11,692 nucleotides of DNA, from the NCBI GenBank assembly GCA_048938025.1, contig JBHLMP010000073.1, positions 1-11,692 of the forward strand, read 5' to 3'. The translations under genes and the position numbers were made by a program. A model generated the notes under the pieces. The model had not been told where the DNA came from. It ran no database searches and saw only the letters and a list, made by a program, of their open reading frames with translations. Shown here one piece after another: positions 2,056 to 5,712 of this stretch; position 1 is the stretch's first letter, and each line of letters begins with the position of its first letter. Source of the DNA: Promethearchaeota archaeon (GTDB lineage Archaea; Asgardarchaeota; Lokiarchaeia; Sigyniarchaeales; SOKP01).

Positions 2056-2496
2056 TTATTGGTCTATTAGGCAAATATTTGCATATTCATGAGGTTTGTT
2101 TATTAAATTTCGATAATTTTTAAGAACCTTCTCAGATGATAAATCTGTGGTTTGTAAATTAAATGGCCAAACTCCTACCACAATATCACCCAATTTTTTC
2201 ACATTTCCAATTAAATAACCTACTTTTGCTCCATCTGATTTAAGTGTATATAATACAATAAAATAATAATTATATGAATATCTAGATTTTTTAGAACCAA
2301 TTACAACAACCTCTTCAATATTTTGAAAATATAAAATGTTTTGACTTAATTCACTCAATTTTTTTAGCTCCAAAATAAATTGAGTTGTAACCTTTATGGG
2401 TTTAGCTGAAGTTATATCTTTAAAGCTCAATGTTAATTTCTTATTTTCAGACCCTTGAACTCCTTTAAAGATTACTTTATAAATATTGAAATCCAT
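2056..2496 (-). CDS. Hypothetical protein (146 aa)
   Basis: ATG-initiated ORF filling the space between the PfkB gene and aIF1, co-oriented with aIF1. No motif recognised. Confidence 0.65.
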   Translation of the reverse strand: MDFNIYKVIFKGVQGSENKKLTLSFKDITSAKPIKVTTQFILELKKLSELSQNILYFQNIEEVVVIGSKKSRYSYNYYFIVLYTLKSDGAKVGYLIGNVKKLGDIVVGVWPFNLQTTDLSSEKVLKNYRNLINKPHEYANICLIDQ

Positions 2497-2571
2497 AGAA
2501 ATTAGGTAAAGATTTATTTTTTTAATTATCTAACTTTTTATATCTAGACTTCTGATGTTAATTATTATTAT

Positions 2572-2904
2572 TTAACTTTTTTTTGTTTTTTCTTGAATGA
2601 TGATATTTTCTTCAGGAAAACCTAAATCAATTAAAAACTTTTTCATCTTAAAACGATGATCTCCTTGAAGTTCAACCTGGTTATTTCTTACAGTTCCGCC
2701 TGAAGCACACTTTTTCTTTGCTTTTGTTAAGATATCTTTAAGATTAACATCAAAGTTCCCTACAAATGTTATTACTGTAACCACTCGCCCCCATTTCCTT
2801 GTGTCATTAGATATTATTATTTGTTGCTCATCAGCACTTAAGCCTTCACAAATACATAGTTCTTTTGGAAAACTACATATTGGACAAATGTCGTCGTCTT
2901 TAAT
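2572..2904 (-). CDS. sui1: Translation initiation factor aIF1 (SUI1/eIF1 homolog), 110 aa, probable non-canonical ATT start
   Basis: The ORF-track call (GTG at 2784) is internal. The frame extends 40 codons upstream as (I/M)KDDDICPICSFPKELCICEGLSADEQQIIISNDTRKWGR, followed by VVTVI...KKKCASGGTVRNNQVELQGDHR, all typical of archaeal SUI1. An in-frame TGA lies at 2916-2914. There is no ATG/GTG/TTG between it and the Cys knuckle; ATT occurs at 2904-2902 and 2889-2887. Confidence 0.9.
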   Translation of the reverse strand: MKDDDICPICSFPKELCICEGLSADEQQIIISNDTRKWGRVVTVITFVGNFDVNLKDILTKAKKKCASGGTVRNNQVELQGDHRFKMKKFLIDLGFPEENIIIQEKTKKS

Positions 2905-2913
2905 ACTCTCTTT

Positions 2914-2917
2914 TCAC
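2914..2917 (-). promoter_or_regulatory. SD-like GTGA ribosome-binding site for aIF1
   Basis: GTGA lies 9 nt before the ATT at 2904. The same motif lies 9 nt before the GTPase ATG (3170-3173) and 7 nt before the thermosome ATG (7899-7896). It matches part of the archaeal GGAGGTGA consensus. Confidence 0.55.
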
Positions 2918-2989
2918 AACCTTTAATATTAAAATCTTTTTAAAATACAATACTTGAAAAATAATAGAACAATATCTTTTAAAAATCTT

Positions 2990-3003
2990 TCACTCTAGAG
3001 TGA
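2990..3003. promoter_or_regulatory. Perfect 14-bp palindrome TCACTCTAGAGTGA, candidate operator
   Basis: Self-complementary and GC-richer than its surroundings. Lies in the divergent aIF1 / small-GTPase intergenic region. Confidence 0.35.
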
Positions 3004-3182
3004 CACTTTTATAATGTAAAAAAGAGGGAACTTAAATTTGATAAATTAAACATTAAAAATTTATCTTTCAAATTTATAATATTAGATTTAATTTATCAAG
3101 TAAAAAAATATATAAAGATTAAATTTTATTTAATATAAAAAACTGTACTCTTTATTTTAGTTTAATAAAGTGAATAATTAAT

Positions 3183-3716
3183 ATGCAAAGTTCATGGATA
3201 TTTAAAGTAATTGTGGCAGGGGCTGGTGGAGTTGGAAAAACTGCTATGATAACTCGTTATTGTACAGGGAGATTCGAACAGGGGTATAAAATGACTATAG
3301 GTGCTGGTTTTCATACAAAATCTGAAATTCTTGATACAGGAGAGGCTGTTAAAATGCAACTCTGGGACTTTGCAGGTGAAAAACGTTTTCGCGAGCTTTT
3401 GCCTGATTATTGTAAAGGGGCTAGTGGAGCTTTCATATGTTTTGATATAAGCGATTATGATACTTTTAGAGAAATTCCTGAATGGCTTAAGATCATCCGT
3501 CAAAAAGCTGGATTTATACCAATAATTCTTATGGGTATGAAATGGGATCTTCCCAACCATGAAGTCGTTTACGAAGTAGCAAATGATTATGCTGAAAAAG
3601 CTAAATGCAACCAGTGCGTATTTTGTTCTTCGAAAGGAAATATCAATATAACAGATTCTTTTCAAGCGATGGCAAAATGGTTAATTTATTATGCCACTCA
3701 AATAGATAATACATAA
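3183..3716 (+). CDS. Ras-superfamily (Rab-like) small GTPase, Asgard-type
   Basis: G1 GAGGVGKT, G2 YKMTIG, G3 WDFAGE, G4 MKWD (NKxD variant), G5 SSK. Rab-like segments KMQLWD and YCKGASG. No C-terminal CAAX/CC prenylation motif. Confidence 0.92.
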   Translation: MQSSWIFKVIVAGAGGVGKTAMITRYCTGRFEQGYKMTIGAGFHTKSEILDTGEAVKMQLWDFAGEKRFRELLPDYCKGASGAFICFDISDYDTFREIPEWLKIIRQKAGFIPIILMGMKWDLPNHEVVYEVANDYAEKAKCNQCVFCSSKGNINITDSFQAMAKWLIYYATQIDNT

Positions 3717-4713: not shown

Positions 4714-5712
4714 ATGAGTGTAAGGGATTCTTTAATTAAACATTTAACATCTATTTTACGGGCATCTGAAGGAACAATCTTAGTAGTTCTATGTGATCAA
4801 AATGGTCTATCTATAGCTAAGATTGGCAGGAAAAGTGATATAGATTTAAACCCAAATCAAATCACAAGTTTAGCATCAGCAGCGTTTTCTGCTAGTCAAG
4901 AAAATTGGGAAGATTTGAACATCAAAGATCAAGTTATTTCATTTTCATATTTTGATAAAATTTGTTTGATAACAATAAGAATTAATGAAACTCTACTTAC
5001 AATAGTTCATGATTATCATAAAGAATGGCCATTAGATGCAGACAATCTAGCTAGTTCTATGTATTATTTAAAACAAAAGTTAGGTGATTTTTTTGGGGGT
5101 GGCGGAGAATCTGAAAAAGATATTGAAGAGTTTTGCGATAAAGTTCGAAGTGCTACATATCTTTTCGGGATGGGATCAGAAGTTCCTTTTGCATCATACC
5201 TCCCTGAAAAAATTGATAAATTAGATATTTTAAATTCTATAAGCACTGTTTTGGATTCTATTCAAAATCCTATATTTATCAGATATAGTTTAGTTAACCC
5301 TTCTGGTTTGACTTTAGATGCTCGAGATGTTAGTGGGAAAAATTTACCCGTTTCTGTTGAAGCCTTTTCAGCAAATGCTAACGTCGCATTTCAAAAAATG
5401 AAAGAAGAATCAGAAGGAAGCTCAATTGGTGATCTCTTAAGTTATATAGCAATCGCCGGTCAAGATACTGAAAACTTTTATGGCCTTCTCGCAAGTCCCT
5501 CAGGAAAAATAAATTTTTCAAAATTGGAGGAGACTTCAAATATTCAGGAAATATCTTTCATTGGATTGTTTACATTAACATATGGAGGTATACCTGTTAT
5601 TAGTGAAGCAAGAAATATTATTTTTTCAATATTAGAGATTCTAGGGAAGGACCAAACGACACAGAACTTCATTGAATCTATAAATGTTCTTACTAGTTTT
5701 AAATATGATTAA
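4714..5712 (+). CDS. Roadblock/LC7 (MglB/LAMTOR-like) domain protein, probably two tandem Roadblock domains
   Basis: N-terminal pattern of helix, VVLCDQNGLSIA, ITSLASAAFSASQ...DLNI, then beta strands. A second similar unit follows (LDSIQNPIFIRYSLVNPSGLTLD ... EAFSANANVAFQKMKEE...IGDL) after a linker containing GGGG. Confidence 0.72.
   Translation: MSVRDSLIKHLTSILRASEGTILVVLCDQNGLSIAKIGRKSDIDLNPNQITSLASAAFSASQENWEDLNIKDQVISFSYFDKICLITIRINETLLTIVHDYHKEWPLDADNLASSMYYLKQKLGDFFGGGGESEKDIEEFCDKVRSATYLFGMGSEVPFASYLPEKIDKLDILNSISTVLDSIQNPIFIRYSLVNPSGLTLDARDVSGKNLPVSVEAFSANANVAFQKMKEESEGSSIGDLLSYIAIAGQDTENFYGLLASPSGKINFSKLEETSNIQEISFIGLFTLTYGGIPVISEARNIIFSILEILGKDQTTQNFIESINVLTSFKYD

Follow-up and report, generated by a model that had tools for sequence, protein, structure and literature searches.

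The gene coding for the translation initiation factor aIF1 on Promethearchaeota archaeon contig JBHLMP010000073.1 very likely starts at an AUU codon, and, as judged by alignment with its relatives, this codon, the reading frame that it opens and the N-terminal peptide that follows are conserved and under selection. By analogy with the behavior of aIF1 in other archaea, we lean towards the view that the aIF1 mRNA is translated from AUU(2904) under negative feedback exerted through the level of aIF1 itself. All coordinates refer to the window, that is, the whole stretch of 11,692 nucleotides that was analyzed, and the features needed to follow the argument at the start codon are the following.

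2572-2904, minus strand: aIF1/SUI1 coding sequence, 110 codons plus stop (2574-2572), read from ATT(2904).
2902-2904, minus strand: ATT, the proposed initiation codon, conserved across the family.
2848-2886, minus strand: zinc knuckle C-P-I-C ... C-I-C, codons 7-19, with all four Cys invariant in alignment A1.
2782-2784, minus strand: GTG, codon 41, the first canonical in-frame start; the default ORF call is 2572-2784, 70 aa.
2914-2921, minus strand: GGTTGTGA, a Shine-Dalgarno (SD)-like motif 9 nt before ATT, whose TGA (2916-2914) is an in-frame stop.
2900-2917, minus strand: out-of-frame mini-ORF GTG AAA AGA GAG TAT TAA, which overlaps ATT and is not conserved as an open frame.

On the minus strand, the aIF1 frame reads TGA(2916-2914) AAA GAG AGT ATT(2904-2902) AAA GAC GAC GAC ATT TGT CCA ATA TGT, letter for letter as a previous reading of the DNA, made from its sequence only, had claimed. 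From TGA(2916) to GTG(2784-2782), codon 41, this frame contains no ATG, GTG or TTG, which bears out the claim of the same reading that no canonical start lies upstream of the CPIC..PKELCIC knuckle. Its other observations at this site also hold: the mini-ORF GTG AAA AGA GAG TAT TAA is present at 2917-2900, out of frame and overlapping ATT, and the 9 nt found between GTGA (2917-2914) and ATT(2904) likewise separate GTGA(3170-3173) from ATG(3183) at the neighboring GTPase gene.

The product of the gene matches the SUI1 domain (Pfam PF01253) with 65.2-65.5 bits, above the curated cut-off of 25.5. Residues 5-103 of the query align with residues 3-101 of a solved aIF1 (PDB 4mo0, E = 7.9e-25), and this alignment includes the N-terminal CxxC...CxC knuckle. 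The first Cys is preceded by Met at a distance of 4 residues in the solved aIF1 and by the ATT codon at a distance of 6 residues here. Both the 65-bit PF01253 match and the alignment to 4mo0 thus agree with the earlier identification, and by sequence similarity the protein is a member of the SUI1/aIF1 family. The assembly (3.52 Mb, 96.7% complete) contains a single copy of SUI1/aIF1. According to the literature on other archaea, its role here would be to bind the small ribosomal subunit and to proofread start codons. The surrounding genes were also inspected. A 146-aa ORF without a Pfam match (window 2056-2496) follows aIF1 on the minus strand at a distance of 75 nt and may be co-transcribed with it. 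The divergent neighbor at 3183-3716 on the plus strand codes for a Ras-family small GTPase, and the ORF at 4714-5712 on the plus strand weakly matches MAPKK1_Int, a roadblock-like family, with a score of 21 bits that does not reach the cut-off. A neighborhood containing a Ras-family GTPase and a roadblock-like match is typical of Asgard archaea.

Within the class, 153 genomes at least 70% complete were searched with a profile, 133 of them yielding a match, and the 5′ regions were then compared. The family count comprises 109 readable primary aIF1 loci from 12 genera, G000 included; seven loci without a readable motif (L033, L054, L057, L222, L225, L226 and L227) and one cut by a contig end (L153) were omitted from the counts. 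If a canonical start is defined as an ATG, GTG or TTG in frame after the upstream stop and before the first Cys, 102 of the 109 loci have none. Four of the seven exceptions are loci of genus g18, in which GGTAGTGT is followed by 8 nt and ATA CCT with GTG in frame; two others, one from g24 and one from g26, carry GTGA, 8 nt and ATT, a spacing that brings the motif's GTG into frame; the remaining one is a g29 locus with GTG. The exact arrangement of GTGA, 9 nt, ATT (90 loci) or ATC (3 loci, genus g27) and AAR was found in 93 family loci. The recurrence of this layout across the family is more than chance. The 5′-end alignment of the relatives' aIF1 genes is also consistent with the start put forward by the sequence-only reading, as ATT or ATC is kept in the family and ATG occurs in 0/109 readable loci.

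In the 79 full-length sequences from g1 and g28, codon 1 is ATT in 79/79 and codon 2 is AAA in 79/79; the Ile codon that precedes the first Cys is variable in the same sequences (ATT 71, ATC 2, ATA 6). Codons 2-40 have a pS of 0.56 and a pN/pS of 0.087, compared to a pN/pS of 0.121 for codons 41-105. The low ratio upstream of codon 41 indicates that the first 40 codons form a translated part of the gene that is under constraint, and the 70-aa product is thereby excluded. At the other end, in-frame stops lie 1-3 codons ahead of ATT. In L006, L014, L098, L101 and L102, an in-frame TAG stands one codon before ATT and the codon between them is AGC, AGT, CGT or CCT, none of which is near-cognate, so that the start cannot be located upstream of ATT in these loci. 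Conservation, purifying selection on the N-terminus and the in-frame stops 1-3 codons upstream all strongly support the proposed AUU start.

Two further observations concern the family loci themselves. In nine family genomes, aIF1 is present twice, the second copy being about 61% identical (L032, L096, L103, L128-L131, L140 and L142). Eight of these nine copies present a strong G(G)AGGTGA followed by 8 nt and by ATT or ATA AAA GA, and L103 lacks the motif; these second copies may be paralogs, genes of mobile elements or contamination of the bins. In the single-contig relative G006 (contig C1), aIF1 is split in two pieces located about 350 kb apart, codons 1-25 at approximately 1032005-1032079 (L058) and the remainder at 1385116-1385373 (L057). 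The first piece runs into N letters, and the split is likely an assembly or masking artifact.

The previous reading had offered a homopolymer error as an alternative, as one A fewer in the AAAA run (2914-2911) would place the GTG of the motif in frame. Along the same line, the gene could be a pseudogene, or be expressed only as the 70-aa product from GTG(2784), which is the form that default gene callers return. We compared contigs from four public DNA runs, one of which may be the source sample, over positions 2700-3100. The A run is spanned by the X2 contig (2851-3100, 0 differences) and by the X7 contig (2702-3100, 1 difference, 0 gaps), no insertion or deletion over 2700-3100 is listed in the contigs of the four runs, and the variants of the runs at positions 2913 and 2910 are base substitutions to the forms found in relatives. 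The 29 other genomes of the genus have a stretch of the same length, GGTTGTGATAAGAGAGT followed by ATT, therefore the AAAA of the window represents a T>A substitution of the ATAA of its relatives. These relatives carry GTGATAAG, equal in length, and most of those in the genus have two in-frame stops (TGA TAA) ahead of ATT. The homopolymer error is thereby refuted. Since codons 2-40 are also under the purifying selection described above and aIF1 is an essential factor encoded by a single copy, the chance that the AUU start reflects an artifact, a decaying gene or a truncated product is, in our judgment, negligible.

Public records already contain both outcomes of this start-codon choice. Entries of 70 aa beginning with MVTVITF... 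are present in the protein collection, and gene calls from ENA, JGI and Logan give products of 70, 76, 84 or 90 aa that lack the zinc knuckle. NCBI records of metagenome-assembled genomes (MAGs) list proteins of 105-113 aa beginning with MKDD[DE]ICP, an N-terminus (MKDDD...) that is obtained when the ATT codon is read as Met. The call of an ATT start is therefore already implicit in public records. The NCBI annotation uses a bacterial family name (stress response translation initiation inhibitor YciH) and states nothing about the unusual codon or its meaning. Default gene callers thus cut an essential aIF1 to 70-90 aa, with loss of its zinc knuckle.

The motif GGTTGTGA upstream of ATT is invariant in genera g1, g28, g27, g21 and g19. 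The 3′ end of 16S rRNA was not found in this assembly, and that of a same-genus genome (...GGATCACCTCC) was used instead. Compared with this 3′ end, GGUUGUGA(U) could form pairs at 6-7 of 9 positions, the two mismatches being central, with GG..GTGA(T) being the part that pairs with GGATCACCTCC. In this genome, G is enriched at positions −14 to −8 upstream of 1481 unambiguous ATG starts, and the distance between GTGA and ATG peaks at 6 (50 cases), 7 (27) and 9 nt (27; n = 173). The 9-nt spacing of aIF1 is thus in range but at the long edge, the mode of the genome being 6. The GTG within the motif is out of frame with ATT at the 9-nt spacing and in frame at the 8-nt spacing observed in g24, g26 and the second copies, and its distance to ATT remains steady at 8-9 nt while its frame changes. 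Because the frame varies and the distance is kept, this GTG is better explained as part of a ribosome-binding motif than as a start codon. We find it reasonably probable that initiation at the aIF1 AUU is led by an SD interaction.

How much of this motif is present on the transcript depends on the promoter, for which two candidates were considered.

2936-2945, minus strand: proximal TATA-like TTTTAAAAAG, 32-41 nt before ATT; an A/T-rich box of variable sequence is found in all aligned g1 loci.
2953-2990, minus strand: conserved upstream block AAAGATTTTTAAAAGATATTGTTCTATTATTTTTCAAG (window form), nearly invariant in 33 g1 loci and recognizable in g18.

If the TATA-like box acted as the promoter, transcription would be initiated near GTGA, and a transcript starting at or after GTGA would leave the motif unable to act as an SD sequence. 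The distal block, 38 nt long, A/T-rich and located 50-86 nt ahead of the start of aIF1, is more conserved than the synonymous sites of the aIF1 gene and is probably a promoter or an operator. As a promoter it would produce a leader of about 40 nt that includes the motif. We rejected the block as a regulon motif, given its single occurrence in the genome. A perfect 14-nt palindrome, TCACTCTAGAGTGA, is located directly upstream of the block (window 2990-3003); among the aligned loci, it is present only in the window and in its closest relatives, L003 and L004. No RNA structure was predicted in the leader region 2880-2992 (z = +0.61), and no Rfam match with an E-value up to 1 was found in 2400-3300.

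The conservation of the motif also bears on a different use of the same letters, in which ribosomes would initiate at the in-frame UUG-UGA start-stop or at the GUG of the mini-ORF (2917-2900) and then re-initiate at the overlapping AUU (AUUAA). The invariance of GGTTGTGA in g1, g28, g27, g21 and g19 exceeds what is expected for an SD sequence with two mismatches, the proximal TATA-like box would set the transcript start near GTG, and the TAA stop of the mini-ORF overlaps ATT in most loci, although this overlap simply results from the conservation of ATT AAA. However, the mini-ORF closes early in L097 (GTG ATT AGT TAG) and in L104 (GTG ACA TAA), TTG-TGA is missing in g22, and in g23, where AAGGAAGGAA is followed by 9 nt and ATT, no NTG is present in any frame within the 28 nt upstream. 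Furthermore, the GTG is in frame at the 8-nt spacing of g24, g26 and the second copies. We consequently regard re-initiation as very improbable.

A programmed +1 frameshift in the style of prfB or antizyme, with initiation at GTG(2917) and a shift at UAU-UAA-A into the aIF1 frame, would make use of the same mini-ORF, which runs one base behind the aIF1 frame, such that a +1 shift would join both, and which ends in a stop codon followed by A. Yet the 9-nt spacer is highly variable and contains no conserved slippery site, the last sense codon is TAT or CAT, and the spacer positions change freely, including to stops in the aIF1 frame. Along with a mini-ORF that is shut early in L097 and L104 and missing in g23, these features argue against both a +1 frameshift and an obligate mini-ORF, and we consider the frameshift scarcely credible. 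Direct initiation at AUU is therefore the reading that we retain in what follows.

Weak starts at aIF1 are also found beyond this family. The rest of the class provided 22 loci, 6 of which are without any canonical start. At the homologous position, [start]-Pro-Lys, the codon is ATG in g8, TTG in g2, GTG in g11 and ATA in g5 and g10, the ATA of g10 following AGGTGA and 5 nt; g13, g16 and g17 exhibit an SD motif with ATA and no canonical codon. In the other classes of the phylum, 60 loci were examined, 56 of which were readable and 12 of which lack a canonical start. ATA follows AGGAGG or GAGGTGA in families f10, f11 and f15, and CTG is the start in f29 and in four genera of f27, the rest of which mostly use GTG. 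ATG is found in f9, f12, f13, f16, f18-f21, f23 and f24. Among the other Asgard families sampled, about half use ATG or GTG, hence feedback through a near-cognate start cannot be universal. Based on these comparisons, a weak or near-cognate aIF1 start appears as a recurrent, though not universal, trait of Asgard archaea.

Near-cognate starts also seem to occur at other genes of this genome. In 2683 stop-to-stop ORFs of at least 150 codons, we analyzed the stretch that runs from the upstream stop to the first canonical start; this 5′-zone analysis was used in place of SD counts over the whole genome, which, when no such restriction is applied, reflect only coding periodicity. SD k-mers of at least 5 letters with an in-frame ATT, ATA or ATC at the aligned spacing of 5-7 were found in 68 cases compared to 53 for A/T-only control codons, against a ratio of ATT/ATA/ATC to control codons of about 0.39 at other spacings. 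Canonical starts at a spacing of 4-9 after SD k-mers amounted to 246. These counts suggest some 47 extra AUH starts among the 2683 long ORFs, or roughly 1-2%. The start of an E2-like gene (C20:19996-20505, plus strand; AGGTGAT, 5 nt and ATC) is ATC or ATT in 22/22 g1 loci; in g28 the codon at this position is ATG (8/8 loci). An EtfA-like gene (C88:1855-3045, minus strand) has CTG in this genome, preceded by AAGGTGAT, and its start across 23 loci is CTG in 11, TTG in 9, GTG in 1 and ATG in 2. Further examples of apparent near-cognate starts with good SD motifs are found at C5:5206-6033 (minus strand) and C56:13876-16023 (plus strand), and the genes for aIF1A and aIF2-beta of this genome have ATG starts. 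ARAGORN was used to look for an initiator-like tRNA with another anticodon and detected no clear initiator, neither among 14 tRNAs nor among the 32 obtained with the intron option, several of which are doubtful; the tRNA set of the assembly is too incomplete to serve as evidence. From these sequence comparisons, near-cognate starts appear to be a trait of the lineage that turns over to canonical codons at both control genes, inside a genus or from one genus to another, and they are seemingly frequent enough here to distort the annotation of further genes.

Given these other near-cognate starts, the AUU start alone is no proof of a dedicated circuit. The AUU start could be real and simply lower the output of aIF1, or be tolerated, with no meaningful feedback on its concentration. 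Such a reading sits well with the enrichment of in-frame ATT, ATA and ATC at the spacing of 5-7, as seen for canonical starts, and with the ATC and CTG of the E2-like and EtfA-like genes in this genome, but it accounts poorly for the fact that aIF1 keeps ATT or ATC through 12 genera, with ATG in none of the 109 loci, whereas both controls switch to ATG or TTG. The contrast favors selection for a weak aIF1 start, bearing in mind that it involves two controls only, both picked for their near-cognate look in this genome. Two additional points weigh against a start without feedback: near-cognate aIF1 starts recur in several separate Asgard families, and the published discrimination of aIF1 against AUU, if valid here, makes some feedback automatic. 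We thus view an AUU start that only reduces or tolerates low output as rather unlikely.

The biochemical premise of the feedback that we favor comes from two other archaea. In 30S complexes of Sulfolobus solfataricus, mRNAs with AUG and with AUU were bound without aIF1 and only AUG was bound with aIF1 (Hasenohrl et al. 2009, as reported in PMC4705826), and in Pyrococcus abyssi aIF1 destabilized complexes formed on non-AUG mRNA (Monestier et al. 2018, PMC6237735). Where these sources establish discrimination against AUU or non-AUG codons, the portions covered do not mention at which codon the aIF1 gene itself begins. Should AUU be discriminated against by aIF1 in the present organism as well, an aIF1 mRNA that starts at AUU would be under negative feedback by construction. 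The 30S subunit would be placed through pairing of the 16S 3′ end with GGUUGUGA, 9 nt upstream of AUU(2904), and initiator Met-tRNA would read AUU with a mismatch at the third position, giving the N-terminus Met-Lys-Asp-Asp-Asp-Ile-Cys. As aIF1 would destabilize non-AUG initiation complexes, a high level of the factor would result in less initiation on its own AUU and a low level in more. The level of aIF1 would also tune the other genes with apparent near-cognate starts, roughly 1-2% of the total.

Two known systems resemble this proposal. The bacterial infC gene, coding for IF3, has an AUU start and is subject to translational autorepression (PMC4705826, citing Butler et al. 1987). As in infC, a factor that rejects non-canonical starts is itself placed behind an AUU conserved over a wide clade, and the expected logic is the same, more factor leading to less initiation on its own mRNA. 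Unlike in the infC case, other genes of the genome share near-cognate starts; in addition, related Asgard lineages also have ATC, ATA or CTG at the aIF1 site, and IF3 and aIF1 are unrelated in sequence. Eukaryotic eIF1 is autoregulated by means of an AUG whose context is poor (PMC4705826 and PMC6237735, citing Ivanov et al. 2010). aIF1 is the homolog of eIF1 (SUI1 family) and the initiation site of its own gene is suboptimal in both cases, but eIF1 relies on AUG in a weak Kozak context on a scanned mRNA, whereas aIF1 would rely on a near-cognate codon behind an SD-like motif. A supposed −1 frameshift in the SUI1 gene of S. solfataricus was judged a possible sequencing error upon re-sequencing (PMC8211752).

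In the literature searched, which included passages of PMC6237735, PMC4705826, PMC7531240 and PMC8211752, we found nothing that says at which codon an archaeal aIF1 gene starts. A 2020 review (PMC7531240) makes no mention of non-AUG, AUU, autoregulation or feedback. Within these sources, an archaeal fidelity factor that limits its own synthesis through a weak start is not described.

The AUU start of aIF1 bears on the evolution of start-codon fidelity, in a manner tempered by the lineage-wide occurrence of near-cognate starts. More tentatively than for the feedback in this organism, we propose that the near-cognate aIF1 start (AUU, AUC or AUA, and CUG elsewhere) could be an old, recurrent and selectively maintained homeostat of aIF1 in Asgard archaea, which would also set the output of a near-cognate-start regulon, and which would correspond in archaea to the autoregulation of eIF1 and may have been its forerunner. 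If true, a conserved AUU, AUC or AUA start of aIF1 in those archaea that are most closely related to eukaryotes would complete the picture provided by IF3 in bacteria and eIF1 in eukaryotes, and all three domains of life would control their start-codon proofreader via its own weak start site.
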